From Thermoplasmatota archaeon (GTDB lineage: Archaea; Thermoplasmatota; E2; DHVEG-1): DNA of 64,000 bases. Below are positions 2,994 to 52,595 of the stretch, piece after piece. Position numbers and translations under genes: made by a program. The notes beneath the pieces were generated by a model. It searched no databases and was not told the origin of the DNA. It saw nothing but the letters and a program-made list of their open reading frames with translations. The stretch lies in the NCBI GenBank assembly GCA_030601705.1, contig JAUWBM010000001.1, positions 3,473 through 67,472 on the forward strand, given 5' to 3'. Within the stretch, counting starts at the first letter, position 1. Each line of letters opens with the position of its first letter.

Positions 2994-4667
2994 ATGAAAG
3001 ATATCATGTTTAGAAAAGTCTTTGTAGTTGGAATAATAGTCTTGTTTGTTGGAGCTAGTGTTGCTGTACCAAATATTAAAATGTTGACCAACGTTGAAAA
3101 TGTATTTTCTGCTCGTGCTATGGAGACACTTGATGGAGCACCTTTTGAACCAATCGATCCATTGCCTGAAAATAATTCTGAAAATATAAGTATAAACCCA
3201 GATATAAGCGTATTTGTAATTGATCCTGACAACGATACAATGAACGTTTCTTTTTATAATGCATTGGATGATAGTTTTATTGACGATGCCGAAGATGTGC
3301 AAAACGGGACTAGAGCAGAAGTGATCTGGTCAGATTTAGAATACAACACAACCTACAGTTGGTATGCAATTGCTAACGATTCAATATTTGAAAATAGATC
3401 AGAAACATGGTTTTTTACAACTATAATAAATCACCCACCAAATGAACCGATTGATCCATTACCTGAAAATAATTCTGAAAATATAAGTATAAACCCAGAT
3501 ATAAGCGTATTTGTAATTGATCCTGACAACGATACAATGAACGTTTCTTTTCATAATGCATCGGATGATAGCCACATAGGGACCGTTTTTAATGCTCCAA
3601 ATGGAAGTAGAGCAGAAGTAGAATGGTCAGATCTTCAGTATAACACAACGTACAGCTGGTATGCTGTTGCAGATGACGGCGAATATACCAATCAATCTGA
3701 CACCTGGAATTTTACAACTACAGCAAATCATCCACCGAATGAGCCAAGTAATCCGAATCCAGAAGATGATGCAACGGATGTCGATATTGATGCTGATCTC
3801 AGCTGGATAGGTGGTGACCCTGACGGCGATTCTGTCACCTACGACATCTATCTTGAGGCAGACGATTCGACGCCGGATGTTAAAGTTGCAGATGATATTA
3901 CTGAGACGACGTTTGATCCAGGGGCACTAGAGTATATTACAACGTATTATTGGCAAATCATCTCCTGGGACAGCCAAGGTGCATCAACTGAGGGGCCAAT
4001 ATGGCATTTTACAACAAAAGCTCTTCTGCCACTAGAAGTAAATATAATCAAACCAGAAGAACGTAGTTTTTACCTACAAAACGAAAAACTGTTTCCGTTA
4101 ATAATGAATACCATCGTCTATGGTCCTATTGACATTGAAGTGAATGCCACATCGGGAGCAGAAATAGATAGAGTGGAGTTTTACATCAACGATGTATTAA
4201 AGGATACAGTTAATGAGGCAAACGAAGATGGAGTATATACCTATCATTGGTCGCAACCACTCTGCTTTGTATACACAATAAAAGTCATTGCCTATGACGA
4301 TGCAGGGCAGAATGCCTCTGCTGAAATAAAAGTATTAAAATGGAGAATACATCCTGTCATACTCCTCGCCGGTACTATGTTCATATTTAGACAATTAAGA
4401 TCAGGAACACCATTTCAATGGACAATACTAAGAGGAACAGTTTTTAACCTTAAACAAGTAGGAAATAAATACCATGGGCGAGCTATACGACTTCACTACA
4501 CTGAAATCGCGCCTTTCAGCTCGGTTTCTGGCACCGGCACCATAAAACTCAGAAAAATAACATTTGCACGTGCCCCATTTATGTTAAGCCATGATATTGG
4601 TCCAGTTGGTTTAACTACCTACATCTTTGGGATATTCCCCGGGAAAATAAACAGAATACTAGCATGA
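2994..4667 (+). CDS. secreted cell-surface protein with signal peptide and three tandem ~99-aa FN3/Ig-like repeats
   Basis: N-terminal hydrophobic signal (VFVVGIIVLFVGASVA); repeated HPPNEP...NxS...YSWYA units rich in N-glycosylation sequons. Confidence 0.6.
   Translation: MKDIMFRKVFVVGIIVLFVGASVAVPNIKMLTNVENVFSARAMETLDGAPFEPIDPLPENNSENISINPDISVFVIDPDNDTMNVSFYNALDDSFIDDAEDVQNGTRAEVIWSDLEYNTTYSWYAIANDSIFENRSETWFFTTIINHPPNEPIDPLPENNSENISINPDISVFVIDPDNDTMNVSFHNASDDSHIGTVFNAPNGSRAEVEWSDLQYNTTYSWYAVADDGEYTNQSDTWNFTTTANHPPNEPSNPNPEDDATDVDIDADLSWIGGDPDGDSVTYDIYLEADDSTPDVKVADDITETTFDPGALEYITTYYWQIISWDSQGASTEGPIWHFTTKALLPLEVNIIKPEERSFYLQNEKLFPLIMNTIVYGPIDIEVNATSGAEIDRVEFYINDVLKDTVNEANEDGVYTYHWSQPLCFVYTIKVIAYDDAGQNASAEIKVLKWRIHPVILLAGTMFIFRQLRSGTPFQWTILRGTVFNLKQVGNKYHGRAIRLHYTEIAPFSSVSGTGTIKLRKITFARAPFMLSHDIGPVGLTTYIFGIFPGKINRILA
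3146..3590. repeat. tandem direct repeat (~297-bp period) inside the FN3 surface-protein gene; ~93-bp core is identical between copies
   Basis: The string cctgaaaataattctgaaaatataagtataaacccagatataagcgtatttgtaattgatcctgacaacgatacaatgaacgtttctttt occurs at ~3165 and again at ~3462. Confidence 0.75.
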
Positions 4668-4861: not shown

Positions 4862-5959
4862 CTACTGATAGTATCTTGTGTTGTCTTTTGTTACAACGAG
4901 TTTTTTCGATTCTAATTCTAAGTAGTTTTCAATCTCTGCAAACGATTGAAGTTCGATTTCTCTATTTTCATAATATAGGTATTGTATGCCGGAAAGAGAA
5001 ATATTGAGGGACTCATTACTTCCTTCGTCAACAAATAATCGTAAATGAAAAGCATCCTCCATTCCAAAATTCTGATTTATATCGACTTGGATCGATGTCG
5101 TGCAACAGGCACATTCAACAGGTACCCATCCCTCGTTTCCCATTAATTTGCCAACAAAGACTTCTACCCATGCATGAGCCGTTGCAGTTACTTCCCCATT
5201 TTTCTCCCTCTGTAGAAGATAACCTCGGACAAATCGAGCAGGAATATCGACCGCCCTACATAATGATATATAAAGAAATGAGAGATCATCACAATCTCCT
5301 GTTTTCTTTTGAAGTGTTACAGATGCAGGTTGAACATCTCCTTGACCGTTATGTATTTGATAATTTGTGTTTTCTTTTAGCCAGATGAAGAGCAACTTAG
5401 CAATGACAAACGAATTGTTCGTCTCTGCTTGACGCAGTACAGTATCAGCAATTGTTTTAATATTAGGATCATTGGGATCCATGAGATTTGTAGTTCCGTT
5501 GGATTGTTCATGACAATACTGTTCTACGATCTTAGGATAAAAATTAGTGATTTCCTGTATTCTCAGTGCGCTATCGCCATTTAAATCAGAAACAAGAAAA
5601 CTTTCAGATTCAATGCTAGCTGTTACCCCCAGTTCATACGTCGCATCATCTGTCCCTGACACATTCCATCGTATAAAACTATTATTTACCAATATTATGT
5701 TCTGCGTGTAATTTTGGTTGTATAGTAAACTATATGATATTGTTTTGAGAGATTCAGGTAGATTGCATCTATAATCTATCTCATATTTTCCATTGCCAGT
5801 ACAATTTATTTGATAGCCATATTTGATGTCATAGCTTACTTTTGTAGGGTGAGCTACATATGTTGTTGGGATATCCGGAAAAAAATCTAAGCATCCAGAT
5901 ATTACAGGTACTATTAATAAAACGACGGTTATGATGAGGGTGACTTTTTTATTTTTCAT
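4862..5959 (-). CDS. transglutaminase-like cysteine-protease-fold protein with N-terminal signal/lipobox
   Basis: N-terminus MKNKKVTLIITVVLLIVPVISGC; core GDCDDLSFLYISLCRAVDIPARFVRGY...HAWVEVFV...GWVPVE matches the Cys-His-Asp transglutaminase-like core. Confidence 0.7.
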   Translation of the reverse strand: MKNKKVTLIITVVLLIVPVISGCLDFFPDIPTTYVAHPTKVSYDIKYGYQINCTGNGKYEIDYRCNLPESLKTISYSLLYNQNYTQNIILVNNSFIRWNVSGTDDATYELGVTASIESESFLVSDLNGDSALRIQEITNFYPKIVEQYCHEQSNGTTNLMDPNDPNIKTIADTVLRQAETNNSFVIAKLLFIWLKENTNYQIHNGQGDVQPASVTLQKKTGDCDDLSFLYISLCRAVDIPARFVRGYLLQREKNGEVTATAHAWVEVFVGKLMGNEGWVPVECACCTTSIQVDINQNFGMEDAFHLRLFVDEGSNESLNISLSGIQYLYYENREIELQSFAEIENYLELESKKLVVTKDNTRYYQ

Positions 5960-5970
5960 ATGATCGTTTA

Positions 5971-7821
5971 TTATCTCTTAAATAATCCTCGCTTTTTAGG
6001 TCTCGAGGCCCTGTATTGGCATCCGGTATTCATAGGACACCTAATGCATTCAGGATTTTCGTCATGGCAGAATTTTTTCCCAAGTTTTGCTAATGACTCC
6101 AGATATTTGTACACGTTTTCTTTCATTTTTTCTGCTTCTTCTGTCAGTTGTTTTATTGTTTCCTCAGTATCGTCGGTTGTAACCCACCCCAGTCTTTTTG
6201 CTACTCTATTTACTATCACTGCTTTTGGGGTAACATTACTCCCCCTATCTGCAGGTTCTGATTTTGGGATAGGTGCAACATGTTCTTTTTGGAGGGGTGG
6301 AGGGGCAGGCATTTTTGGTATATTTGGCTTAAAATCAGTCGGTTCACCATCTTTGAAAATGGTTACGGACTTGCCACCATGACTCGTCTCCCTAGTACGT
6401 ATCTCGACCATTATAGGGATCTGAATGGAGGCACCCGAGATCAAAGCAATCCCGATAGGAAGTCTCTGTATCTCATTATATGTCTGATTCGTTAAGCCTT
6501 CGACTGATTGGATTATTGCTTTTAAGTCATTAGGATTTGTCACTTTTAGAATAATATTTGTGTTACATTGTGAAATGATATTTTTATCAACCTTTGCAGG
6601 ACGCTGACTTACGACACATAATCCCATACCAAACTTTCTACCTTCAGAGGCTACTGTTCTCAGCATATTAGACGAAACAGAAGTGCCAAATCCACGTTCA
6701 GGGCAGTAATTATGTGCTTCTTCCACTATAAGTAAAAATGGAGGGATTTTTCCTGCTTTACGATCATCGAATAACTCTTTTGTTAAGCGCGCTACAACAA
6801 CATCTTGTATATCTGGCGGAACACCTTTCATATTAATGACAGAACATTTTCCCTTTCTTACAAGATCGGTAGCCGAGGTTCCTTCTTCAGAGAAGACACC
6901 GATAGAATCAAGCGATTCGAGCGATGCAATAACATTCCATCGTGCATTACTTTTGCTCCTGTTGACTGCTTCAATAATGTCTCGGATAGTGTATATCTCC
7001 TTGTATTCTTTTATCTCTTTAATTGATTGGTATAAAACGCCTATCTGTGGTCCCGAAAGTTTCGCATGAAGAAGATCAATAATTTCTCGTGCCTCAAGAT
7101 TCGTACCATTTAATGTTAAATGTTTAATGTCTCCTTTACTTCCAAGCGGAGAATATCCAATAAGTTGGCTAGAATATTGGCCTGGTTTGACACCGAATTT
7201 GTCCATGTTTTTTTGTTCTTTCTTGTCTTTGTTTGATTTTGAAAGCGATATATATTCACCATGGGTATCAATTATAACCATTGGCACTTTTTTCTTGAGA
7301 AGTTCCTCAACTAAGACGCCGCAGGCATAGCTTTTGCCACCGCCTGTTTTCGCCAGTATACAAATATGTTTTTGAACAAGAGAATCTATGTTCAAAAAAA
7401 CCGGCAGGTTAAGTCCCTTAAGAAGGCCCAGATATGCTCCGTTTTGCTTCTCAGAATACAGACCGATTACATGTCTTATGAGATCTTCACTGGCAGGTAT
7501 TATTCTGCTCCCTGTTTCAAAAGGAGTTCGTGGAGTCTGTAAAAGGCCCCTTTTATCCCTATATCCAATTACATCTGCATATGCAGAGACATTGCTTTTA
7601 ATATACGGAAGTTCGTCGTTGCTTTGTAGCATAGTTGCTTCTTGAAATTTAAAGTCCGAATATCTTTTGATATCCATTACTTGAGCAAGTACGTATCCTT
7701 CTTTATGCGGTGCTGCTACATAGTCAAATTTTCTTATATTATAACCATCGACAATGAAATTAAATTCAGTCGAACCGACATTTCCATAGATAACTCCTAT
7801 AGAATCATTTTTTTGTGGCAT
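5971..7821 (-). CDS. HerA/DUF87-family ATPase with a C-terminal extension resembling the endonuclease-III C-terminus (4Fe-4S cluster loop C-X6-C-X2-C-X5-C)
   Basis: HAS-barrel-like N-terminus (IGVIYGNVGSTEFNFIV), Walker A (ILAKTGGGKSYACG), Walker B (FLLIVEEAHNY), then a Pro-rich linker and VNRVAKRLGW...FCHDENPECIRCPMNTGC. The start was moved to the internal Met (MPQKND) to avoid overlapping dph5. Confidence 0.75.
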   Translation of the reverse strand: MPQKNDSIGVIYGNVGSTEFNFIVDGYNIRKFDYVAAPHKEGYVLAQVMDIKRYSDFKFQEATMLQSNDELPYIKSNVSAYADVIGYRDKRGLLQTPRTPFETGSRIIPASEDLIRHVIGLYSEKQNGAYLGLLKGLNLPVFLNIDSLVQKHICILAKTGGGKSYACGVLVEELLKKKVPMVIIDTHGEYISLSKSNKDKKEQKNMDKFGVKPGQYSSQLIGYSPLGSKGDIKHLTLNGTNLEAREIIDLLHAKLSGPQIGVLYQSIKEIKEYKEIYTIRDIIEAVNRSKSNARWNVIASLESLDSIGVFSEEGTSATDLVRKGKCSVINMKGVPPDIQDVVVARLTKELFDDRKAGKIPPFLLIVEEAHNYCPERGFGTSVSSNMLRTVASEGRKFGMGLCVVSQRPAKVDKNIISQCNTNIILKVTNPNDLKAIIQSVEGLTNQTYNEIQRLPIGIALISGASIQIPIMVEIRTRETSHGGKSVTIFKDGEPTDFKPNIPKMPAPPPLQKEHVAPIPKSEPADRGSNVTPKAVIVNRVAKRLGWVTTDDTEETIKQLTEEAEKMKENVYKYLESLAKLGKKFCHDENPECIRCPMNTGCQYRASRPKKRGLFKR

Positions 7822-7858: not shown

Positions 7859-8668
7859 TTATAGTTTTTGTAATTTTTTACTAATCGCTTTTGGCAGATT
7901 TGCAAAAACTTCTAAAGCTTCAACTTCCTTAAAATGGAGATTTCCAGGGATAATCAAAGTGTGAAGTGGTGGGCCAAAATCTTTGTTTAGTAAAGCCTTG
8001 ACTGAATTTGCTACCATGACAGGATCTGGTGAGCCGGCACGAGCAACGACGCAGATAACGCCATCTTCACTAAGTATCTTTTCTCCCAGTTTTTCTTCCA
8101 TTTTTAACAGAAGTTCCATGCCCTGATTTGCAGTCATATATATATCTCTATCCGCCTGAATATCAAGAAGAACGAGCGTATGCAATCCCATTTCTTTATT
8201 TTCTTTTATGATAGTATATGGACTTGTTGGAAAGTAATCTTTTTCTGGAAATGCGAGTGTTGTTGTCCTCCCAAACTTATAGTTTTGTAAGCCGAGCAGC
8301 CCAGGTGCAGCAGTGACAATACTTCCACTGTGAAAGATTTTCGTTTTTATGCCTCTCTTCGTAGCCCGTAATCTCAAATCGACATGAGTTGTTGCAATCA
8401 TGGGGTCTCCGCATGTTAAAAAACCAACTTTTTCTTTTAATGCATATTCTAAAATTTTGTCACCCTTTTCGGTTTCTTCCCTGGATAATACTTTTAATGT
8501 CTTACCTAGTTTTTTTTCAAAAGTGTTTTTATCTAGACCTACAAGCTTTGACGTATAAAATTCAGCAAAAATCTTGTCACAATTTTCTAATTCGCTCAAT
8601 CCTTTCAATGAAATATCTTTTTCGTCGTAGAGACCTAGACCAACAAAGATCAACTGTCCATTTGACAT
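7859..8668 (-). CDS. dph5: diphthine synthase
   Basis: LIFVGLGLYDEKDISLKGLSELENCDKIFAEFYTS and the downstream tetrapyrrole-methylase-fold motifs match Dph5; start placed at MSNGQL. Confidence 0.85.
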   Translation of the reverse strand: MSNGQLIFVGLGLYDEKDISLKGLSELENCDKIFAEFYTSKLVGLDKNTFEKKLGKTLKVLSREETEKGDKILEYALKEKVGFLTCGDPMIATTHVDLRLRATKRGIKTKIFHSGSIVTAAPGLLGLQNYKFGRTTTLAFPEKDYFPTSPYTIIKENKEMGLHTLVLLDIQADRDIYMTANQGMELLLKMEEKLGEKILSEDGVICVVARAGSPDPVMVANSVKALLNKDFGPPLHTLIIPGNLHFKEVEALEVFANLPKAISKKLQKL

Positions 8669-10542: not shown

Positions 10543-10701
10543 ATGTCAACTCATAAATCATTAGGTAAAAAACTTCGATTAAATAAGGCCACAAAGAGTA
10601 ATAGAAGAGTACCAGCGTGGGTCATGATTCGTACTAACAGACGTTTTACCAGACATCCAAAGACACGTAATTGGCGGAGAAACAAACTCAAGAAAGGTTG
10701 A
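10543..10701 (+). CDS. rpl39e: 50S ribosomal protein L39e (52 aa; below the ORF-track length cutoff)
   Basis: Translated by hand: [52 protein letters not shown]. Confidence 0.85.
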
Positions 10702-10706
10702 TTTTT

Positions 10707-11357
10707 ATGGCTGAAAAGGAGTCAAGTAAAGAAATTGAAAGGATATACGTTGTGCCACTTAGGAGGGCAAAAATCGGTAGATCTTCCCTAGCTGCTCCGA
10801 GAGCGGTTAAACAAGTTCGTGGTTTTCTTACTAAACATATGAAGGTTGATGGGGGAGATATCTGGATAGATGATTCTCTCAACAGAGAATTATGGTCTAA
10901 AGGTAAATACAAGATACCAAGTAAGATACGTGTGAGAGCTATTAAATTTGAAGATGGTGTTGTAGAAGTAACACTACCGGAACTTGGGGTTAAAAAATCA
11001 AGACGGGAAATTCTAAAGGAAGAAAAAGAAAAGAAAGCACCTATTCTCAGAAGAGAAGAAGCTGAGATGCCCGAAGAGGGGGCTCCTGGAACTGAAGATT
11101 ATGAAATTAGTCCTACAGCAGATGGAGAAGTAAAAATAAAGAAAAAGAAAGCGCCAAAGGAAGAAAAAACTGAAAAGAAGAAAGAAGCTAAGAAGAAAAC
11201 TGTCAAGAAGGTAGGAAAAAAAGAAGAAAAGAAACCAGCGAAAAAACCGAAAGCTTCTAAAGAAAAAAAGAAAGAATCTAAAACTTCCAAGAAACAAAAG
11301 AAACCCGCAGGTAAAAAGAAGGCGACTTCTAAAAAAACAGAGAAAAAAAGTGAATAA
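10707..11357 (+). CDS. rpl31e: 50S ribosomal protein L31e with a ~120-aa Lys/Glu-rich C-terminal tail
   Basis: ERIYVVPLRRAKIGRSSLAAPRAVKQVRGFLTKHMKVDGGDIWIDDSLNRELWSKG...IRVRAIKFEDGVVEV. Start set at ATG 10707, after the L39e stop; the track start at 10671 overlaps L39e. Confidence 0.85.
   Translation: MAEKESSKEIERIYVVPLRRAKIGRSSLAAPRAVKQVRGFLTKHMKVDGGDIWIDDSLNRELWSKGKYKIPSKIRVRAIKFEDGVVEVTLPELGVKKSRREILKEEKEKKAPILRREEAEMPEEGAPGTEDYEISPTADGEVKIKKKKAPKEEKTEKKKEAKKKTVKKVGKKEEKKPAKKPKASKEKKKESKTSKKQKKPAGKKKATSKKTEKKSE
11010..11357. repeat. low-complexity lysine-rich coding segment (KKxxKK periodicity) forming the L31e tail
   Basis: aag/aaa/gaa-rich DNA; antisense spurious ORFs 11013..11384 and 11099..11290 arise from it. 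Confidence 0.6.
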
Positions 11358-16230: not shown

Positions 16231-17181
16231 ATGAAAGGTCAAGGCATCGGCTTCGGAAAGGCCATTTTATTTAATGAACACTTTGTAGTATATGGGATAC
16301 CATCGATTGTTTCTGCAATAGGTAAATATACGGTTGCTAAAGTAGAACCATATGATCAATCTAAGTTGATACTAGAGGACAAAAGGGATGCAACCCCAAA
16401 GTACAAAGAAGAAAAACTTGACCAACAGAATAATTCCATTAATAGAATTTTGAAGAAAATGGGCATTGATACATCCAAAAATGGAATCAAAATTACGTTG
16501 AATGGGAATCTTTATGCAGCAAGTGGTATCGGTGCTAGTGCAGCTTCTTGTGTGGCGATTGGGAGAGCCCTATCAGATTATTATAACCTCAATCTTTCAG
16601 ATGATGAAATTAACGAGATAGCATATGAAGGAGAGAAAGGATATCATGGTACTCCATCAGGAGTTGACAACACTGCATCAACCTATGGAGGACTTATTTG
16701 GTTTCAAAAAGAAGAAAATAATATCATAGAGAAAATTTCAATTTCCAACCCTATTGAAATCGTAATAGGCAATACCGGCAAAGTTGCAAACACAGTTGCC
16801 GCAGTTGCTGGTGTTAGGGAGAGAAAAGAGGAAAAACCTGAGAAATATAAGGCGATATTTGATAGAACTGAAAATATAGCATATTTAGCAAAAACAGCGT
16901 TGCAAGAAGGGGATTATAGAGAAGTTGGAAAGCTCATGAATGAAAACCATAAACTATTGCAACAGATTGAAGTTTCATCGAGGGAACTTGATTTTCTTGT
17001 AAATATCGCACGAGAATATGGAGCCCTTGGATCGAAACTTACTGGTGGCGGCTTAGGGGGAAACATGATTGCTCTGACGCCGGGTAAAGAACTGCAAGAA
17101 AAGGTAGCAAATGCCATAGAAAAAGAAGGATTTCAGACCATAAAGACGGTCATAGGCGCATCCCGGGACGGTATCGAGTAA
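16231..17181 (+). CDS. mvk: mevalonate kinase (GHMP kinase)
   Basis: GKAILFNEHFVVYG, ASGIGASAA and GGGLGG GHMP motifs. Confidence 0.85.
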   Translation: MKGQGIGFGKAILFNEHFVVYGIPSIVSAIGKYTVAKVEPYDQSKLILEDKRDATPKYKEEKLDQQNNSINRILKKMGIDTSKNGIKITLNGNLYAASGIGASAASCVAIGRALSDYYNLNLSDDEINEIAYEGEKGYHGTPSGVDNTASTYGGLIWFQKEENNIIEKISISNPIEIVIGNTGKVANTVAAVAGVRERKEEKPEKYKAIFDRTENIAYLAKTALQEGDYREVGKLMNENHKLLQQIEVSSRELDFLVNIAREYGALGSKLTGGGLGGNMIALTPGKELQEKVANAIEKEGFQTIKTVIGASRDGIE

Positions 17182-18491
17182 TGAATCTTCGTGATTTTCT
17201 ATCCACACTTGAAAAGGAAAATAAATTGATACGCATAAAAAAAGAAGTATCTACAAATTATGAAATAGCGAATGTCATGTATTCTCTCGATGAAAAACCA
17301 GTTATTTTTGAGAATGTCAAAGGATTTGATTTCCAGGTTTTTGGTGGTATTACTTCAAATAGGGACATTATTGCCAATGGTCTAGACACAACAAAAGATA
17401 AAATTTTGTTTAAGCTTGTTGAAGCGCTTCGCAATCCAAAAGAACCGGAGATGACAGACAAAGCGCCATGCCAAGAAGTTGTGATAAAAGATCCTGACCT
17501 AAGTAAAATCCCACTCCTCTACCATCTAGATGGTGATGGCGGCAGATATGCCTCTGCTACGGTTTCAACGATAAAAGATCCCGATACAGGCAGAAACGTG
17601 TCATATCATCGTTTAATGGAAATTGGTAAAAACAAGTTCACTGCGCGTCTCATTAAAAACAGACAGACTCGTACCACTTACGACAAACTCCAGGGAGATC
17701 TAGAGATGGCAGTATGTATTGGTAACTCGGTAGCGGTTATGATTGCAGCTTCGCTTGGACCGCCTTCCGGTGTTGACGAATTTTCCATAGCAAATGCTCT
17801 TGATAAGACACCTATGATTAAATGTATAACAAAAGATCTTGAAGTTCCGGCTGAATCAGAATTTGTTATAGAAGGAAGACTTACTAGGGAACTCGATAGA
17901 GAAGGTCCCTTTGTTGACCTTACTGAAACAAGAGATTTTGAGCGACAAGAGCCTGTTTTTGTCGTTGATTGTATAACACGTAGAAAGGATGCAATGTATC
18001 AAGCGTTGATTCCTGGTAGACTTGAACACAAAACGCTCATGGGCATGCCAAAAGAACCGACTATCTACAACGAAGTAAGTAAAGTGGTAGACTGTAAAAA
18101 TGTGCTTGTAACAATGGGTGGCGGTTCATGGCTTCATGGTGTTGTCCAAATCAAGAAGAGACATCCTGATGACGCGAAAAAAGCAATTGAAGCTGCCTTT
18201 AACGGTCATAAAAGCATGAAACATGTGGTTATCATTGATGAGGATGTTGATATTTACAATTCAACTGCTATAGAATGGGCTATTGCAACTAGATTTCAGG
18301 GTGACAATGACCTGACTATAAAACCTGATCAACCAGGTAGCTCTCTTGACCCCTCGGGTAAACATGAAGTGGGGAAGAAAACTCTCACGACAAAGGTGGG
18401 CGTTGATGCAACGATTCCACCTCATATTGATAAAAGTAAATATGAGGTTGTTCAATACAAAAAAGTTGATATAGATGATTACCTCAGGTGA
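17181..18491 (+). CDS. UbiD-family decarboxylase (candidate trans-anhydromevalonate-5-phosphate decarboxylase)
   Basis: UbiD N-terminal signature (LRDFLSTLEKENKLIRIKKEV...VIFENVKG); start overlaps the mvk stop (TAATG). Confidence 0.8.
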   Translation: MNLRDFLSTLEKENKLIRIKKEVSTNYEIANVMYSLDEKPVIFENVKGFDFQVFGGITSNRDIIANGLDTTKDKILFKLVEALRNPKEPEMTDKAPCQEVVIKDPDLSKIPLLYHLDGDGGRYASATVSTIKDPDTGRNVSYHRLMEIGKNKFTARLIKNRQTRTTYDKLQGDLEMAVCIGNSVAVMIAASLGPPSGVDEFSIANALDKTPMIKCITKDLEVPAESEFVIEGRLTRELDREGPFVDLTETRDFERQEPVFVVDCITRRKDAMYQALIPGRLEHKTLMGMPKEPTIYNEVSKVVDCKNVLVTMGGGSWLHGVVQIKKRHPDDAKKAIEAAFNGHKSMKHVVIIDEDVDIYNSTAIEWAIATRFQGDNDLTIKPDQPGSSLDPSGKHEVGKKTLTTKVGVDATIPPHIDKSKYEVVQYKKVDIDDYLR

Positions 18492-18792
18492 TGGTAAATT
18501 CAAAGTGTGGCTTGAGGAGAAAAAGATTGGTGATGATCTCCTCTACATTCTAGGTGGAGGTGAACGAACTCATATTGGAGGAATTGTTTTCTGCGAACCA
18601 AATAAAGAACCTCAGATCATATATTTAGCAGGGCATTATGATGATATTGTTTTAAAAACAATTGCCGAGACAGCATGTAAAAAATACGGCACCAAAGTAG
18701 TTGTAACCGGTGGCATTCATATAGATAATGCTACAAAAAATGATATCGAGAAATTAGTTGAAAATTGTAGGGAGCTAGAAAAATGTATTTAA
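18475..18792 (+). CDS. small uncharacterised protein (105 aa) embedded in the mevalonate operon
   Basis: ORF track; both ends overlap neighbouring genes, suggesting translational coupling. Motifs GGGERTHIGGIVF and VVVTGGIHID; no family assigned. Confidence 0.4.
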   Translation: MITSGDGKFKVWLEEKKIGDDLLYILGGGERTHIGGIVFCEPNKEPQIIYLAGHYDDIVLKTIAETACKKYGTKVVVTGGIHIDNATKNDIEKLVENCRELEKCI

Positions 18793-19967
18793 CTAAAGAA
18801 GAAGAGAAAATTCTTGATGGCGATGAAGGGGAAGTAGAAGCGAGATTGTTTAGGCTGCTTGTGCGATTGGGAGAAATATACGGTGCTGATAAGATGATAC
18901 CTGTAGGATCTGTTCAAGTTGCAGGTGTTTCTTACAAATCCATTAGTGATCCGGGTACAGAGTTCTTAGAAGATATGGCATCAAAAGGTGCCAAGGTAAA
19001 GGTACTCACCTATCTCAATCCTGCAGGAATGGATCTTGAGAATTGGAAGAAAATAGGCTTTCCAAAGGATTTTGCAAAGAATCAGCTGAGGATAATGAAT
19101 GCATTCAAAAGCATGGGCATTGTAATCACTTCTACCTGTACACCGTATCTTGCTGGTAATTTACCACGTTTTAGAGAGCATATAGCCTGGTCAGAATCTT
19201 CTGCGGTTTCATTTTCTAATTCCGTAATTGGAGCGAGAACCAATAGAGAAGGAGGGCCTTCTGCTCTTGCTGCTGCTATTTGCGGTAGAACGCCAAACTA
19301 TGGATTGCATCTTTGGGAAAAACGTCAACCTAACATTAAAATTAAGGTGGACGCTGACATGGACTTTAATGCTGATTTTGGTGCTCTTGGATATTTTGTT
19401 GGTAAGCAAGTTAAAAATAAGATTCCGTACTTTACAGGCATAAAAAATGCAAACACAGACCAGTTAAAGGCACTTGGTGCCGCAATGGCTGCCTCAGGAG
19501 CAGTCGCGTTGTATCACGTCGAGGGGTTGACACCAGAGGCGGATTTGGTTGAAAAGGATGGTTTGGAAACTATAGACGTTGGTAAAAAAGAACTTGATGA
19601 AACCTATGAGAAACTGAATTCCGGTAAAGATCCAGATATTGTGATCCTAGGATGCCCACATGCATCTCTTAGAGAGATTTCGACGCTTGCGGTCAAACTT
19701 AAAGATAAACGTTTGAAGAAACCCATTTGGATATGTACTTCAAGAATGATGAAAGAGGCAGCAGATAGAATGGGTTTCACCGAGATAATCGAGAAGGCAG
19801 GAGGCTACATTGTTGCTGACACCTGCATGGTTGTTTCACCTATTGAGGAAATGGGATATAAAACTACAGGTGTAAACTCCGGTAAAGCAGCAAATTATTT
19901 GCCAGGCTTTTGTAAACAGGATGTTGTCTTTGCAAATATAAATAAGCTGATAGAGGTGCAATCATGA
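18783..19967 (+). CDS. aconitase X catalytic subunit (DUF521; phosphomevalonate dehydratase large subunit candidate)
   Basis: MYLTKEEEKILDGDEGEVEARLFRLLVRLGEIYGADKMIPVGSVQVAG, typical AcnX start. Confidence 0.8.
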   Translation: MYLTKEEEKILDGDEGEVEARLFRLLVRLGEIYGADKMIPVGSVQVAGVSYKSISDPGTEFLEDMASKGAKVKVLTYLNPAGMDLENWKKIGFPKDFAKNQLRIMNAFKSMGIVITSTCTPYLAGNLPRFREHIAWSESSAVSFSNSVIGARTNREGGPSALAAAICGRTPNYGLHLWEKRQPNIKIKVDADMDFNADFGALGYFVGKQVKNKIPYFTGIKNANTDQLKALGAAMAASGAVALYHVEGLTPEADLVEKDGLETIDVGKKELDETYEKLNSGKDPDIVILGCPHASLREISTLAVKLKDKRLKKPIWICTSRMMKEAADRMGFTEIIEKAGGYIVADTCMVVSPIEEMGYKTTGVNSGKAANYLPGFCKQDVVFANINKLIEVQS

Positions 19968-49493: not shown

Positions 49494-52400
49494 ATGCCTT
49501 TTGATGCTGAATCCATCATTGGTGGAAAAAGCGGCGTTCTCAGGGGCTTAGTTAAGGAATATAAAATAGAAATAAAAGGAAAGCCTGAATGTTCTAATGC
49601 GTGCCCAGCAGGGATCAATGTAAAGGCCTATGTAAATCTCATTGCAAACAGGAAATTCGAAGAAGCTGTAGAAGTAATACGTCAGGCTAATCCATTTCCT
49701 GCTGTCTGTGGGAGGGTCTGTACTCGACCGTGTGAAGATAGCTGCGAACATGGAGTAGAAGGAGATCCTGTTTCTATTCGTGCCTTAAAGAAGTACGCCT
49801 CTGATTATGAACTTGCCCGCCGACCTCTTGTGATGGAACCTTGTAAAACAGTTTACGACGAAAAAGTAGCAATAATTGGAGCTGGACCTGCGGGTCTTTC
49901 AGCTGCCGTAGATCTTGTACGAATGGGATATCCTGTCACTGTTTTTGAGACGAAAAAAGACCCAGGGGGAATGCTCCGCTATGCCATTCCACCATATCGT
50001 CTTCCAGATAGAATTCTAAAAAGAGAGATTGACTGGATAAAAGGGCTAGGAGTAAATATCAAAACAGGAACAAAAGTTGATGATTCTGTAACCTTATTTA
50101 AGAAAGGATATTCTGCCATACTCATTGCAACAGGTGCACCAAAATCGTTTTCTCTCGGTATTGGAGGAGAAGAATCGGAAGGAGTTATCGATGCTTTGTG
50201 GTTCTTACGGGGAATCTGTAATAATAGTCCAATAAAAATGGAAGGAAACGTAGTTGTAATCGGTGGCGGATCAACTGCGTTTGATGCTGCTAGATCTGCA
50301 ATTCGACTTGGAGTCAAGAAGGTCACATTGGCATATCGTCGAGGAATAGAAGAGATGCCTGCAGAAAGGGAAGAGGTTGAACACGCCCAAGAGGAAGGCG
50401 TTGAAATATTAACGTTAGCAATTCCCAATAAAATAATCATAAAAGGTGGGAAAGTTACAGGAGTAGAATTTCTTAAAGCAAAGCTTGGTGAGCCTGATGA
50501 ATCCGGGCGAAGAAGACCGGTTCCCATAAAAGGAAGCGAGTTCGTCCTAAACGCTGATATTATTATTCCAGCTATTGGAGCAAGACCTGATGTTGGAACA
50601 GTAGGAAATTGCAAAATTACTGCCCAAAATGGAAGGATAAACGTTAAAGATAAAGGATGTACAATAGTAAAAGGAGTTTTTGCCGCAGGTGACGTTGAAA
50701 CAGGACCATCCTCTGTGGTAAAGGCTATTGGACGTGGACATGAAGCAGCAGTCGGTATTAATACATATTTTAGAGGGGCTGAATATACTGAAATAGGAGA
50801 TTCGTCAAAATCTGTACCAATTGTCCTTGAACCACCAACATATTCTCGCTCCCTCCATTCTCCTAAAAGATTGAGGAAAGAAGAAAGGGTCGCATCATTC
50901 AATGAAGTTGAAGGATCATTTGCAGATTTTGAGATAATAGATGAAGCATCTCGATGCTTTACCTGCGGACCATGCGATGTTTGTACTGTTTGTCTTCCAA
51001 ACTGTAATCACAAACAAGTAGTTGCTCAAACAGAAGAAACAACGTTTCTTTTGAAAGTTCCTTCTGACCTATCTTCTATAGTAACTGAAAAGGGGCCATC
51101 TACAGTTAAGGTAAAAGCCAACGGAAATGAAAAATCAATGACGCTTCACAGTCTCATTCCTGCAGTTGACATAGATCGTTGTATAGGTTGTGGACGATGT
51201 GAGGAAGTATGTGCCTACAAAGCTATAAGAAATGTCCTCAAAAAAGATGGAAGAATAGTTGCTGAGGTTGTTCACAACTCATGTGCATCATGCAGCGCTT
51301 GTGTATCAGCATGTCCCTCAGGTGCTATAAGTCAAGGATATATGTCTGATAAAGAAATACTATCAAGATTATATGAGAAAAAGACACCATTTGAAGGAAT
51401 TAAGGCATTGATGAGCTACTGGAGCACTCCATCACCTGCCTTTGATTATAACGGTGTCGTTGAGGTGATGTCTGCAAGAAAACCTACGCCTTCATTTCTG
51501 ATAAGATCTCTAGCACGATCGGGTAAGGGACTTCTAGTTATCGGACCTAATGAAAAAACTGGGTCGCATTATTTACCCGGGGAAGAACATCCTCTCAATA
51601 CGATTCAACAGGCAAGGAGTTTACTGAAACTTATTGGAATTTCTCCTGATAGAATACAATACAAAGCGGTCCCCAATGGTACAAATCCATCTGGACTGTT
51701 AAAAGAATTCTCAAAATCTCTTGATAAAAAGAAACTTGTCACACTCAAAGCACCATTGCCAAAATCCATCAACGGTCCATTAGGAGAATCTATGACAATC
51801 CTAAGGATTATGGGAGCAAATCCGGATATTAAACCTTCTGATAGTGTTATTCCTATTCAACCGGTAAAATCTGGGGGCACTGCCTTTTTTGAAGGATGTC
51901 TACCGATGCTCCATTGGATTGGAGAATCTCATAAATTATTTGATCTGAGTCCGACTCGCCAGGCCATATATGGTCTTATAAAAAAAATGAAGATTGATGC
52001 TGGATTCATTGAGGGTTTTTCCTGCCCTTCAAAGGGGTTACTACAGACAAAAACTGATGGTATCAAGGAAATTGTATCTAAAATTGAATCAAATAATCTT
52101 AAATCATTTAAGAAGGTAAATCCAAAAAAATTAATCCTTGGAACTCCAGAGTCTTTCTCTTCCTTTTCAAAGGAGAAATATTTTGGAACAATATCCTCTC
52201 TTCCTGATGAACTGTTAAATGTGGCAAAAAAATCAAAAGGTTTTGCCCCTATCGAGAAAACTGTATCCATTCATCGTGCTTGTGCTATAGAAAATGATCC
52301 ATTCTATGAAACCACCAAAAAGCTTCTTGATCTTATTCCGGGGCTCACAATCGTTGAACTAAATGGGCAATGTGAACACAGAGGATTAGAGAATTTTGAT

Positions 52401-52595
52401 GGCAACTCAAAGGAGACTGCCTTACATCTAATGAAAGAGGCAGTCAGTAAAGATGTAGATATGATCATATGCACCTCTCCATATTGTGAGTCTCATCTCT
52501 TGCTGAGTCAAAGAAAGGGATCTTGGCGTTCGGTAGATATTGAAGTAACAGATGTGTATAAAGTGCTTCTTTCTTCTTTAGAAGGTGATGCTTAA
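49494..52595 (+). CDS. large multidomain Fe-S flavoprotein: NfnB/GltD-like NAD(P)H oxidoreductase + 2x[4Fe-4S] ferredoxin + Cys-depleted MvhD-like + CCG-like domains (HdrL-like fusion)
   Basis: N-terminus CSNACPAGINV...CGRVCTRPCEDSC plus FAD/NAD(P) GxGxxG motifs (IIGAGPAGLSAA; VVVIGGGSTAFDAA), as in the GltD/SudA family. Mid region CIGCGRCEEVC...CASCSACVSACP. The later segment resembles MvhD/FlpD with its cysteines substituted; C-terminus Cx..CP-like. Confidence 0.7.
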   Translation: MPFDAESIIGGKSGVLRGLVKEYKIEIKGKPECSNACPAGINVKAYVNLIANRKFEEAVEVIRQANPFPAVCGRVCTRPCEDSCEHGVEGDPVSIRALKKYASDYELARRPLVMEPCKTVYDEKVAIIGAGPAGLSAAVDLVRMGYPVTVFETKKDPGGMLRYAIPPYRLPDRILKREIDWIKGLGVNIKTGTKVDDSVTLFKKGYSAILIATGAPKSFSLGIGGEESEGVIDALWFLRGICNNSPIKMEGNVVVIGGGSTAFDAARSAIRLGVKKVTLAYRRGIEEMPAEREEVEHAQEEGVEILTLAIPNKIIIKGGKVTGVEFLKAKLGEPDESGRRRPVPIKGSEFVLNADIIIPAIGARPDVGTVGNCKITAQNGRINVKDKGCTIVKGVFAAGDVETGPSSVVKAIGRGHEAAVGINTYFRGAEYTEIGDSSKSVPIVLEPPTYSRSLHSPKRLRKEERVASFNEVEGSFADFEIIDEASRCFTCGPCDVCTVCLPNCNHKQVVAQTEETTFLLKVPSDLSSIVTEKGPSTVKVKANGNEKSMTLHSLIPAVDIDRCIGCGRCEEVCAYKAIRNVLKKDGRIVAEVVHNSCASCSACVSACPSGAISQGYMSDKEILSRLYEKKTPFEGIKALMSYWSTPSPAFDYNGVVEVMSARKPTPSFLIRSLARSGKGLLVIGPNEKTGSHYLPGEEHPLNTIQQARSLLKLIGISPDRIQYKAVPNGTNPSGLLKEFSKSLDKKKLVTLKAPLPKSINGPLGESMTILRIMGANPDIKPSDSVIPIQPVKSGGTAFFEGCLPMLHWIGESHKLFDLSPTRQAIYGLIKKMKIDAGFIEGFSCPSKGLLQTKTDGIKEIVSKIESNNLKSFKKVNPKKLILGTPESFSSFSKEKYFGTISSLPDELLNVAKKSKGFAPIEKTVSIHRACAIENDPFYETTKKLLDLIPGLTIVELNGQCEHRGLENFDGNSKETALHLMKEAVSKDVDMIICTSPYCESHLLLSQRKGSWRSVDIEVTDVYKVLLSSLEGDA

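Follow-up and report, generated by a model that had tools for sequence, protein, structure and literature searches.

A HerA-like ATPase with an endonuclease III-like iron-sulfur domain conserved in uncultured Thermoplasmatota

HerA-FtsK motors and the glycosylase cluster domain

Archaeal HerA of the HerA-NurA systems (Sulfolobus, Thermococcus) combines a HAS-barrel-like N terminus with a RecA-like DUF87 core and carries Walker A, Walker B, and [ST]QRP motifs. A protein with the same core and motifs and a putative HAS-barrel-like N terminus, whose best HMM similarity over its whole length is to archaeal HerA, is encoded in a 64,000-nucleotide stretch of Thermoplasmatota DNA (the window, meaning all of the DNA that was analyzed). 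The window protein differs from canonical HerA in falling far below the equivalog thresholds and in showing no linkage to NurA, Mre11, or Rad50 in the loci surveyed; canonical HerA, in turn, lacks the C-terminal linker, Fe-S module, and basic peptide found here. FtsK, built from an alpha-beta motor, a linker, and a gamma domain, belongs to the same ATPase superfamily. The gamma domain, a winged helix, recognizes KOPS and activates XerD, and N-terminal transmembrane helices anchor FtsK, whereas the window protein has an Fe-S head and no transmembrane segment. The likeness to FtsK would be one of architecture (a hexameric pump with a small domain flexibly tethered at its extreme C terminus), and any functional likeness is an analogy.

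HerA-like paralogues without the Fe-S module occur in Euryarchaeota and DPANN, including Geoglobus ahangari WP_048094614 and DUF87 proteins of Methanoperedens and Woesearchaeota. Their cores are 40 to 52% identical to that of the window protein and end in the same R-x-[ST]-x-H-G-G motif, their C-terminal extensions are variable, and dph5 or a DUF357 gene often lies beside the gene; however, a MinD-like end (GGFLKKIFGG, KKKGLFAKYF), a coiled coil, or an unrelated globular domain replaces the Fe-S module. The finding draws attention to a housekeeping HerA paralogue that is widespread in the Euryarchaeota and DPANN and uncharacterized. A further euryarchaeal DUF87/HerA-domain protein, HVO_1301 of Haloferax volcanii (D4GXE5), is of similar length (588 aa) and is likened here by description rather than by sequence; nothing in that description points to an Fe-S tail. 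HVO_1301 is reported to cross-link to the divisome protein CdpB1 and to localize at midcell, and its deletion had only minor effects (bioRxiv 10.64898/2026.07.16.738847).

The Fe-S domain type in question is otherwise known only from DNA repair glycosylases such as endonuclease III (EndoIII), and the role of the [4Fe-4S] cluster in EndoIII/MutY-type enzymes has been debated for three decades as structural, as a DNA-binding loop, or as a redox or charge-transfer sensor. The cluster domains of EndoIII, MutY, NTHL1, and ROS1-DME share with the window tail a C-x6-C-x2-C-x5-C loop with Pro at loop position 5 and a preceding R-[VI]-A-x-R-L-G helix in which both Arg residues are present. The tail differs from them in lacking the HhH-GPD six-helix barrel and the N-terminal helix of the cluster domain, in having Ala for the catalytic Asp and an acidic loop, and in being carried by a motor ATPase. 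Hundreds of uncultured Thermoplasmatota carry the fusion, which is conserved among them and under selection. An Fe-S accessory module on a HerA-like ATPase is apparently undescribed so far; among the papers searched, none connects HerA/DUF87 with DUF357 or with the Fe-S domain of EndoIII.

The ATPase gene and its C-terminal module

The gene, its parts, and its two neighbors all lie on the minus strand of the window:

5971..7821, minus strand: whole gene of the HerA-like ATPase with Fe-S tail, an uninterrupted open reading frame of 616 aa plus stop
6355..7821, minus strand: HerA-family ATPase core, aa 1-489 (Pfam, NCBIfam, conservation)
7330..7353, minus strand: Walker A (P-loop) AKTGGGKS, aa 157-164 (read from the translation; block 0.93 conserved)
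6718..6735, minus strand: Walker B LLIVEE, aa 363-368, followed by AH (motif scan; conservation 0.88)
6598..6609, minus strand: SQRP motif, aa 405-408 (motif scan; conservation 0.95)
6232..6354, minus strand: variable Pro/Lys-rich linker, aa 490-530, presumably disordered
6007..6231, minus strand: putative EndoIII/MutY-type [4Fe-4S] cluster domain without the glycosylase core, aa 531-605
6019..6069, minus strand: candidate cluster-ligand motif (FCL), C585-x6-C592-x2-C595-x5-C601, here CHDENPECIRCPMNTGC, invariant in homologues
5974..6006, minus strand: basic C-terminal peptide SRPKKRGLFKR, aa 606-616 (column counts, charges)
4862..5959, minus strand: transglutaminase-like lipoprotein, 365 aa, downstream (Pfam Transglut_core, E of 4e-19; lipobox)
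7859..8668, minus strand: diphthine synthase, dph5-like, upstream (Pfam TP_methylase, E of 2.9e-17)

The reading frame runs from an ATG at 7821 to a stop codon at 5973-5971, and full-length homologues are 66 to 98% identical. On paper, a TTG at 7905 could give a longer version; the ATG start is backed by the Shine-Dalgarno-like AAAGGGGT 6 nt upstream and by homologues of 603 to 632 aa that align from residue 1. An antisense reading frame of 140 aa (5960-6382, plus strand) was taken as spurious because conservation tracks the minus-strand frame.

The core has a HAS-barrel-like region at aa 8-60, DUF87 at aa 131-349, and, at aa 395-472, a region resembling HerA_C, and it is closed by a conserved R-x-R-E-T-x-H-G-G-K-S. 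A sequence-only reading of this DNA had named a HerA/DUF87 core, and Pfam bears this out with a match to the DUF87/HerA central domain PF01935 at aa 131-349 (E of 2e-37; 129.9 bits versus a cut-off of 23.2). The match to the HAS-barrel family PF09378 is weak (22.9 bits versus a cut-off of 25.2), as is that to HerA_C; many close homologues have a precomputed PF09378 match. Walker A, Walker B, and the SQRP motif, which we take to be the arginine-finger region of FtsK-HerA ATPases, are all intact. Column conservation in the core is 0.8 to 0.97 and dN/dS is 0.03 to 0.07. The Pro-rich linker that the same reading had placed after the core corresponds to aa 490-530, where column identity falls to 0.46 to 0.6 with insertions and deletions and dN/dS is 0.15 to 0.35; in the distant relatives P0141 to P0143 the linker grows to about 200 aa.

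The tail that follows consists of a V-x-R-V-A-x-R-L-G-W helix, two more helices, and the Cys loop, and its residues are exactly those quoted when the last ~80 aa were first likened to the four-Cys C terminus of EndoIII. Used alone as a query, the 75-aa tail matched the NCBIfam models mutY TIGR01084 (positions 143-209; E of 8.5e-8) and nth TIGR01083 (positions 139-192; E of 1.1e-4). A profile of the tail matched ROS1 (E of 6.9e-9) and EndoIII 9nzc (E of 1.2e-5) among PDB sequences; among 5.8 billion proteins, once the family itself is set aside together with P0392, a lower-scoring family fragment (E of 5.6e-7), its first matches were genuine EndoIII sequences with PF00730 and PF00633 (E of about 1e-6). 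The short Pfam model EndIII_4Fe-2S (PF10576) was not reported for the tail at E of ≤1 and was not enough for the purpose; detecting the homology needed the full-length NCBIfam glycosylase models and the PDB profiles. The profile similarity to the EndoIII Fe-S region on which the sequence-only reading depended was thus found, at E values between 8.5e-8 and 6.9e-9 in the strongest searches. These matches lie far above chance and make the tail a homologue of the [4Fe-4S] domain at the C terminus of EndoIII, MutY, and ROS1. Nor is it a random fragment: as aligned, it spans essentially all of the C-terminal portion of the EndoIII cluster domain, starting with the helix after the catalytic Asp and ending with the last Cys.

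The catalytic part of a glycosylase is missing. As had been noted from the sequence, the ATPase protein has no HhH-GPD core: neither PF00730 nor PF00633 was matched in Pfam at E of ≤1, and the similarity of the tail to EndoIII begins only at EndoIII position 137 or thereabouts. The catalytic Asp, near the beginning of the V-D-x-[HN]-V-x-R helix, aligns with Ala534, and Ala occupies this position in 76 of 80 homologues. Residues R20, R24, G26, and P71 of the tail are common to EndoIII. The C-x6-C loop has a net charge of -0.91 (n = 197), compared with +1.14 in EndoIII homologues (n = 37), and the Fe-S module as a whole has a charge of +1.3, compared with +3.9 for its EndoIII counterpart. Glycosylase activity of the ATPase-Fe-S protein has virtually no likelihood, since the protein lacks the HhH-GPD domain, has Ala for the catalytic Asp, and has lost the basic DNA-contact residues of the loop.

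An AlphaFold2 model of the tail computed with EndoIII rows added to the alignment (pLDDT of 84) has the three-helix-plus-loop fold of EndoIII, a match that is not independent of the sequence homology because EndoIII sequences sat in the alignment; on this model the tail is predicted to adopt the EndoIII cluster-domain fold. A model from a shallow family-only alignment was poor (pLDDT of 67, with the cluster loop below 50) and was set aside. Four-Cys sites can also hold Zn rather than an Fe-S cluster, which counts against the Fe-S reading. We consider that the tail is very probably a real cluster-binding accessory domain.

The protein ends in the peptide SRPKKRGLFKR, which has six Lys or Arg residues and no Asp or Glu and whose conserved end is K-K/R-G-L/F-F-K/R-R/K. 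In relatives, longer MinD-like C termini occur (GLFGKLF, GFLKKIFGG); the closing peptides, of a G-[FL]-[LF]-x-K-[ILMY]-F-G-G-like type and flanked by Lys/Arg, resemble the membrane-targeting sequence of MinD. The C-terminal pattern of Escherichia coli MinD is KGFLKRLFGG. Scored as an amphipathic peptide at the extreme C terminus with a hydrophobic pair, two residues, and a second hydrophobic pair, flanked by Lys/Arg, the full MinD-like motif was present in 12 of 148 family representatives, against a background of 1.6% (P of about 6e-6); one of the 12 is P0141, which also has the Fe-S module. The window protein differs in keeping only half of the motif (GLFKR, within KKRGLFKR), which is too short for a classical amphipathic helix, and membrane binding is putative. 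From its sequence, KKRGLFKR appears to be a short basic remnant of the MinD-like amphipathic peptide that is common in relatives without the Fe-S module.

Possible roles of the tethered module

The explanation that we favor, and rate as rather likely, is a vertically conserved domain fusion in which a housekeeping HerA-family ring ATPase has captured an EndoIII/MutY-type [4Fe-4S] domain that provides tethered, noncatalytic heads for targeting or anchoring. An FtsK-HerA-superfamily ring ATPase of a large uncultured Thermoplasmatota clade would have taken the C-terminal [4Fe-4S] domain from an EndoIII/MutY-type glycosylase, and the domain would ride at the end of a disordered linker of 40 to 200 aa, followed by a short basic peptide. 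As a hexamer, the protein would be a translocase powered by NTP, with double-stranded DNA as its most likely substrate, as for HerA and FtsK; each of its six tethered modules would hold a structural [4Fe-4S] cluster. As noncatalytic targeting or anchoring heads, the modules, together with the neighboring basic, amphipathic C-terminal peptide, may hold the motor on its substrate, on a partner protein, or on the membrane, in a layout analogous to that of the linker-tethered gamma domain of FtsK.

A protein partner or the membrane is a reasonable candidate for the main ligand of the module, and DNA is a tentative one. The sequence-only reading had offered an Fe-S sensor or a DNA-binding appendage; the appendage itself stands, whereas the replacement of basic by acidic residues casts doubt on the DNA-binding role that the cluster loop canonically has, and a DNA-binding role of the module is further weakened because the whole of it is less basic than that of EndoIII. 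Evolution has here cut the cluster domain out of a glycosylase and retained it, still under selection, as part of an unrelated motor. The fusion has no catalytic Asp and no basic loop any more but holds on to the Cys ligands and the Arg network, and it offers a clean natural system in which to test the capacities of the cluster domain by itself. The swappable C-terminal heads of the wider family (MinD-like peptide, coiled coil, Fe-S domain) suggest a localization or targeting code, which bears on the motor, if any, that stands in for FtsK in FtsZ-dividing archaea.

A more specific proposal is that the EndoIII-type [4Fe-4S] domain is an autonomous, portable module that recruits or regulates a membrane- or divisome-associated DNA pump and that the protein is the Thermoplasmatota counterpart of bacterial FtsK/SftA. 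An FtsK/SftA-like pump role for HerA-like ATPases was predicted long ago, and a hint of such a role comes from the midcell position of HVO_1301, the DUF87 protein of H. volcanii. We regard this proposal as unlikely; if true, it would supply a natural "minimal" system for glycosylase Fe-S cluster function without base excision.

Rather than being a passive anchoring head, the module could be a redox or DNA charge-transfer sensor that gates the motor. R539 and R543, corresponding to the Arg residues that couple the cluster to the domain through Arg-Cys hydrogen bonds in MutY and EndoIII, are retained, and the hosts are sediment anaerobes, judged by names such as SG8-52-3, SM1-50, and the Guaymas bins. 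However, EndoIII-type clusters are notably oxygen stable and are redox silent off DNA, the loop required for docking on DNA has acidic character in this family, and the gene context contains no pointer to redox regulation. A redox-regulatory role of the module seems improbable to us.

Gene neighborhood and spread of the fusion

The gene encoding the transglutaminase-like lipoprotein, which the sequence-only reading had correctly placed downstream on the same strand, begins 11 nt after the stop codon of the ATPase gene and is probably cotranscribed with it. It lies directly downstream on the same strand in 76 of 81 loci, and its lipobox Cys23, catalytic Cys223 (GDCDD), and His262 are at least 93% conserved. 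Upstream, 37 nt separate the ATPase start from the dph5-like gene, whose own start was set at MSNGQ to give 269 aa, the usual length of homologues; dph5 is directly upstream on the same strand in 79 of the 81 loci, with a median length of 269 aa. dph5, the HerA-like gene, and the transglutaminase-like lipoprotein gene thus form a conserved trio among housekeeping genes. The recurrent neighbors (dph5, the transglutaminase-like lipoprotein, and ribosomal protein genes, in 76 to 79 of the 81 loci) also include EF-2, and the window encodes RNA polymerase, ThrRS, and ribosomal proteins. The dph5 gene and the gene for the extracytoplasmic transglutaminase-like protein offer no clue to mechanism, and their conserved association may be a matter of synteny alone. 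In four distant lineages DUF357 is the conserved downstream partner; it is absent from the window and from 80 close loci and therefore cannot account for the window locus.

These neighbors bear on whether the protein is the canonical HerA of HerA-NurA(-Mre11-Rad50) double-strand-break resection with a DNA damage-sensing Fe-S head, which we judge to be quite improbable. Its best NCBIfam matches are indeed HerA equivalogs (NF040819, E of 5e-44; NF040937, E of 2e-41), repair nucleases and helicases often contain Fe-S clusters, and in one distant relative the gene adjoins that of the repair helicase-nuclease Hef. However, the scores of 150.7 and 141.8 bits are far under the equivalog cut-offs of 970 and 800 bits, respectively, and the Hef adjacency was seen only once. 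The sequence-only reading had found no NurA gene nearby, and a wider survey agrees: NurA, Mre11, and Rad50 were absent from the ~30 large window reading frames tested and from the recurrent neighbors in 81 loci. By these neighbors the ATPase does not appear to belong to a canonical HerA-NurA pair, and by its model scores it is best classed as a HerA-family paralogue rather than HerA proper.

The protein also does not look like a defense HerA. PADLOC models of HerA from anti-phage systems (Sir2-HerA, DUF4297-HerA, and others), in which the Fe-S module would be a sensor of invader DNA, match at E values of 1e-49 to 1e-23; these matches are confined to the generic ATPase core, and no Sir2, DUF4297, or nuclease effector gene lay beside the ATPase gene in the survey of 81 loci. 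The stable, syntenic position among the genes listed above indicates vertical inheritance and a housekeeping role, and an anti-phage function is very improbable.

The sequence-only reading had left open whether the tail is a relic of a deleted nth gene or a genuine appendage and had proposed looking for the same fusion elsewhere. The fusion was found at full length in no fewer than 80 species-level genomes and in some 2,900 database proteins, and the tail is in frame in 80 of 81 species-level loci. Of the database homologues examined, 140 of 140 keep the C-x6-C-x2-C-x5-C motif, as do 80 of those 81 loci (window included); every examined homologue whose C terminus is present keeps the four Cys, and together with Pro590 these are invariant in 80 of 80 aligned homologues and in all 140 from the database. 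R539, R543, L544, G545, W546, and P590 are invariant or nearly so among the aligned homologues. The tail has a dN/dS of 0.06 to 0.20 (in summary, about 0.1 to 0.16), below that of the linker, and evolves under purifying selection. The module also occurs in relatives that are only 45 to 58% identical and have very different linkers of about 200 aa. That the tail amounts to the last third of EndoIII without its catalytic residues would fit a decaying, functionless remnant, produced if the 5' part of an nth gene located downstream of herA had disappeared and translation of the ATPase had continued into what was left, but the conservation of the tail refutes this, leaving the relic extremely unlikely. 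It is the genuine-appendage alternative that is supported by the spread of the fusion, the retained Cys residues, and the dN/dS of the tail; since the fusion is conserved and under selection, the tail is a real accessory module and not a gene wreck.

A chimeric assembly or an undetected frameshift that fuses two distinct genes, of which stand-alone tail sequences in metagenome gene calls might be taken as a sign, has a practically negligible likelihood, as the reading frame is continuous here and in independent assemblies, including the closed chromosomes CP070724 and CP070798. The tail was found in no other architecture, and its stand-alone copies, annotated as "endonuclease III" and 52 to 98 aa long (such as P0136 to P0138, of 96 aa), are all fragments from frameshifted or truncated contigs. 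The one examined on a long contig comes from a locus in which the dph5, DUF87, and transglutaminase genes are all split by frameshifts, and the others come from contigs of 0.6 to 5 kb. For annotation, gene calls of 52 to 128 aa labeled "endonuclease III" or "adenine glycosylase" in these lineages are fragments of the HerA-like/Fe-S protein.

The ATPase core and its Fe-S tail

The HerA-like ATPase is encoded on the reverse strand by an unbroken open reading frame of 616 amino acids (ATG at 7821, stop codon at 5973 to 5971). The mechanical reading frame reaches further upstream, to a TTG at 7905; because AAAGGGGT precedes ATG 7821 at a suitable spacing and homologs of 603 to 632 amino acids can be aligned from residue 1, the gene was placed at 5971 to 7821. 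Pfam assigned the DUF87/HerA central domain to residues 131 to 349 (E = 2e-37), with weak matches to a HAS barrel (residues 8 to 60, below threshold) and to HerA_C (residues 395 to 472). The conserved core ends in …RTRETSHGGKS and is followed by the linker and then by the tail, TPKAVIVNRVAKRLGW…YKYLESLAKLGKKFCHDENPECIRCPMNTGCQYRASRPKKRGLFKR, so that the HerA/DUF87 core, Pro-rich linker, and EndoIII-like tail described in the sequence-only reading were all present in the translation and the Pfam matches. The predicted FtsK-HerA-type ATPase is intact, and the tether between core and module is presumably disordered.

Features of the HerA-like ATPase
5971-7821 (-): HerA-like ATPase gene
aa 157-164: P-loop AKTGGGKS, in a block within the 88 to 95% conserved range
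aa 363-368: Walker B motif LLIVEE, block within the same range
aa 405-408: SQRP, block within the same range
aa 490-530: Pro/Lys-rich linker, directly after the core end
aa 531-605: EndoIII-type Fe-S tail, predicted ligands C585, C592, C595, and C601

The resemblance of the tail to endonuclease III (EndoIII) is, on profile evidence, real. With the last 140 residues as the query, the claimed similarity to the EndoIII Fe-S region was found in two NCBIfam models, mutY (positions 143 to 209 of 277; E = 8.5e-8) and nth (positions 139 to 192 of 192; E = 1.1e-4), and ROS1, EndoIII, and MutY were the sole significant phmmer matches of the tail among PDB sequences. A profile of 21 tails matched ROS1 (6.9e-9) and EndoIII 9nzc (1.2e-5) in the PDB more strongly than the single-sequence search did. 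Against 5.8 billion proteins it ranked fragments of its own family first, most at E ≤ 1e-15 and one, database protein P0392, at 5.6e-7, and the first matches outside the family were genuine EndoIII proteins with PF00730 and PF00633 (E ~1e-6, 31 to 43% identity). The tail aligns with the EndoIII span that opens with the helix headed by the catalytic Asp and closes with the fourth Cys; read from its sequence, it covers the C-terminal part of the cluster domain completely and is no arbitrary fragment. It is very probably a real cluster-binding accessory domain.

The module keeps the ligand motif, including the Pro at position 5 of the loop, together with the hydrophobic core positions and the R-V-A-x-R-L-G-W helix, whose two Arg residues are near-invariant in a joint alignment with EndoIII. 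Whereas EndoIII has an HhH-GPD barrel, a catalytic Asp, and a basic C-x6-C loop, the window protein has Ala534, an acidic loop, and, as claimed earlier, no HhH-GPD catalytic core detectable by Pfam. The catalytic Asp aligned to Ala534, a position that is Ala in 76 of 80 homologs. The mean net charge of the loop was -0.91 in 197 tails versus +1.14 in 37 EndoIII homologs, and that of the whole module was +1.3 versus +3.9 for its EndoIII counterpart. Glycosylase activity is excluded for the predicted protein, and the canonical contact of the Fe-S cluster loop with the DNA backbone is doubtful. Positive charge is gathered in the 11 residues past the last Cys, SRPKKRGLFKR (6 K/R, no acidic residue), and the K-K/R-G-L/F-F-K/R-R/K end of this C-terminal peptide is conserved. 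Encoded behind the core, as predicted from these features, are a conserved, noncatalytic EndoIII-type cluster domain and a conserved basic terminal peptide.

Conservation of the fusion

Relatives were searched in one genome per GTDB species, and 200 were found. The best 80 of these aligned over residues 1 to 616 at 66 to 92% identity, and all come from uncultured Thermoplasmatota; among them are SG8-52-3, SM1-50, bins from Guaymas and from groundwater, and two closed chromosomes. The C-x6-C-x2-C-x5-C motif was kept in all 140 database homologs retrieved and in every later fragment extending to the C terminus; across 80 aligned sequences, no substitution occurs at the four Cys, P590, V540, A541, R543, L544, G545, or W546, and 79 sequences have R539. 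Column identity was 0.8 to 0.97 in the core, 0.76 to 0.85 in the tail, and 0.46 to 0.6 in the linker, which also has indels; in pairwise comparisons with 11 related genomes, dN/dS was 0.03 to 0.07 for the core, 0.06 to 0.20 for the tail, and 0.15 to 0.35 for the linker. "Stand-alone" tails of 52 to 98 amino acids (e.g., the 96-amino-acid P0136 to P0138), whose annotations read endonuclease III or adenine glycosylase, are fragments, and at the one fragment locus examined on a long contig, frameshifts break dph5, the ATPase gene, and the downstream gene alike.

The sequence-only reading had left open a relic of a deleted nth gene or a genuine Fe-S appendage. The relic is contradicted by the invariant Cys residues, the recurrence in 80 relatives, the purifying-range dN/dS of the tail, and the fragment nature of the stand-alone copies, and the same conservation bears out the appendage. 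A frameshift or chimeric assembly joining the two parts is rejected as well, since the reading frame is unbroken and the full-length fusion recurs in the relatives, closed chromosomes included.

Misannotation of fragments as glycosylases is recurrent: public gene calls of 52 to 128 amino acids named "endonuclease III" or "adenine-specific DNA glycosylase" (P0136 to P0138, P0140, P0345, P0378, P0382, P0385, and locus L083) are C-terminal pieces of the HerA fusion on frameshifted or truncated contigs. Public annotations otherwise read "DUF87 domain-containing" or "HerA-like ATPase," with fragments as "endonuclease III," and no paper describing HerA/DUF87 joined to an EndoIII Fe-S domain was found in the literature searched. 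Each of the two parts belongs to a well-established family, and domains are commonly shuffled. The fusion would be a natural, selected case of a glycosylase Fe-S domain at work outside any glycosylase, and it flags an uncharacterized archaeal motor family whose C-terminal heads interchange.

C-terminal ends and proposed working

Scanned exhaustively with HMMER, 1.84 billion cluster representatives yielded 10,927 matches; the close family is a single 50% cluster. Four more representatives, 45 to 58% identical (P0141, P0142, P0143, and the fragment P0256, one of them named Thermoplasmata HGW-1), carry the same module behind 200-amino-acid Pro/Glu/Ala-rich linkers, and their loops are acidic too. 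The majority of other relatives, from Geoglobus, Methanoperedens, Woesearchaeota, and other Thermoplasmatota, share the core (40 to 52% identical) and differ at the C terminus, where some have no extension and others a coiled coil, a globular domain of unrelated type, or a short peptide (e.g., GGFLKKIFGG, KKKGLFAKYF, or NLFRKIFGGG). Peptides of the GGFLKKIFGG type are patterned like the membrane-targeting sequence of MinD. Further MinD-like ends among HerA-like relatives are SLFKKIFGSSK and RKGLFGKLFNKD; peptide-ended relatives are P0163/P0319 (Geoglobus ahangari WP_048094614), P0148, P0149, P0235, P0262, P0288, and P0141.

Of 148 representatives, 12 end in such a basic amphipathic peptide, versus 1.6% of internal windows (p ~6e-6), and the Fe-S-bearing P0141 is one of the 12 (…RKGLFGKLFNKD). 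The C-terminal extension thus looks like an exchangeable targeting region. KKRGLFKR of the window protein looks like a shortened form of the shared peptide, and the pattern of ends points to peripheral membrane association of the archaeal HerA-like ATPase family.

By analogy with HerA and FtsK, the window protein would form a hexameric NTP-driven translocase, which with one module per chain would carry six flexible Fe-S heads per ring, a layout that recalls the gamma domain of FtsK on its linker. The cluster would be structural, as in the parent glycosylases, and the heads, with the basic/amphipathic end beside the cluster, may tether the motor to DNA, a partner protein, or the membrane. A partner or the membrane is the target that we tentatively and narrowly put first; DNA is nearly as likely, and redox gating by the head is unlikely. 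In Haloferax volcanii, the 588-amino-acid DUF87 protein HVO_1301 is reported in a 2026 preprint to cross-link to CdpB1 and localize to midcell, and its deletion to have only a mild phenotype (bioRxiv 10.64898/2026.07.16.738847); these data offer a lead toward a possible division-site function.

Gene neighborhood and family assignment

Across 81 loci (the window and 80 close relatives), the immediate upstream neighbor on the same strand is a dph5-like gene in 79, at a median distance of 43 bp, and the next gene downstream encodes a transglutaminase core in 76, after a median gap of 10 bp. The same-strand transglutaminase-like lipoprotein noted earlier after the ATPase gene holds up: the gap in the window is 11 nt, and the protein, with its lipobox Cys and a GDCDD…H-x-W catalytic signature that does not vary, is probably an extracytoplasmic lipoprotein. 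Its lipobox Cys23 (gene at 4862-5959, reverse strand) is invariant, and some related loci hold a second, divergent paralog a few genes on (L026, 3765-5075).

DUF357, found neither in the window nor in the 80 close loci, directly follows the ATPase gene in four distant, independent lineages, both with and without the Fe-S module. In one of the four, DUF357 is in turn followed by the transglutaminase gene, and in another dph5 lies upstream. This arrangement suggests that DUF357 and the HerA-like ATPase are a functional pair.

DUF357 genes (~100 aa) adjoining or overlapping the ATPase gene, by locus
L081: 6740-7039
L085: 8136-8435
L086: 8151-8444
L087: 7070-7390

No NurA, consistent with the earlier reading, and no Mre11, Rad50, or defense effector occurred among the recurrent neighbors in the 81 loci or the ~30 large window ORFs. 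NCBIfam HerA equivalogs matched at a mere 15 to 18% of their cutoff scores, and PADLOC HerA models cover the generic core only. On these scores and neighbors, the protein is a housekeeping HerA paralog; assignments to HerA proper and to a defense HerA were both rejected.

The rest of the window holds genes for RNA polymerase B/A'/A'', ThrRS, and ribosomal proteins, RNase P and eIF6-like genes, and genes for enzymes of the mevalonate pathway. Ribosomal protein L31e (10671-11357, forward; Pfam 1.4e-10 over residues 31 to 89) has a Lys/Glu-rich, low-complexity C-terminal extension of ~130 amino acids (KKKEAKKKTVKKVGKKEEKK…), odd for such a small ribosomal protein. A 557-amino-acid secreted or membrane protein (2994-4667, forward), with no Pfam match at 1e-5, is probably a surface glycoprotein, since it has two near-identical internal repeats of ~115 amino acids (…NHPPNEPIDPLPENNSENISINPDISVFVIDPDNDTMNVSF…) and numerous N-x-[ST] sequons. 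Clustered at 16231-19967 (forward) are genes for a GHMP kinase, a UbiD-family decarboxylase, and aconitase-X (AcnX), a set that is a hallmark of the modified "archaeal" mevalonate pathway. A three-gene oxidoreductase operon at 49494-55854 (forward) encodes a 1,033-amino-acid Pyr_redox_2/Fer4_20 protein fused to 4Fe-4S dicluster and FlpD (MvhD-like) domains, a 694-amino-acid 2Fe-2S/Pyr_redox_2/BFD protein, and a DAO-family flavoprotein.
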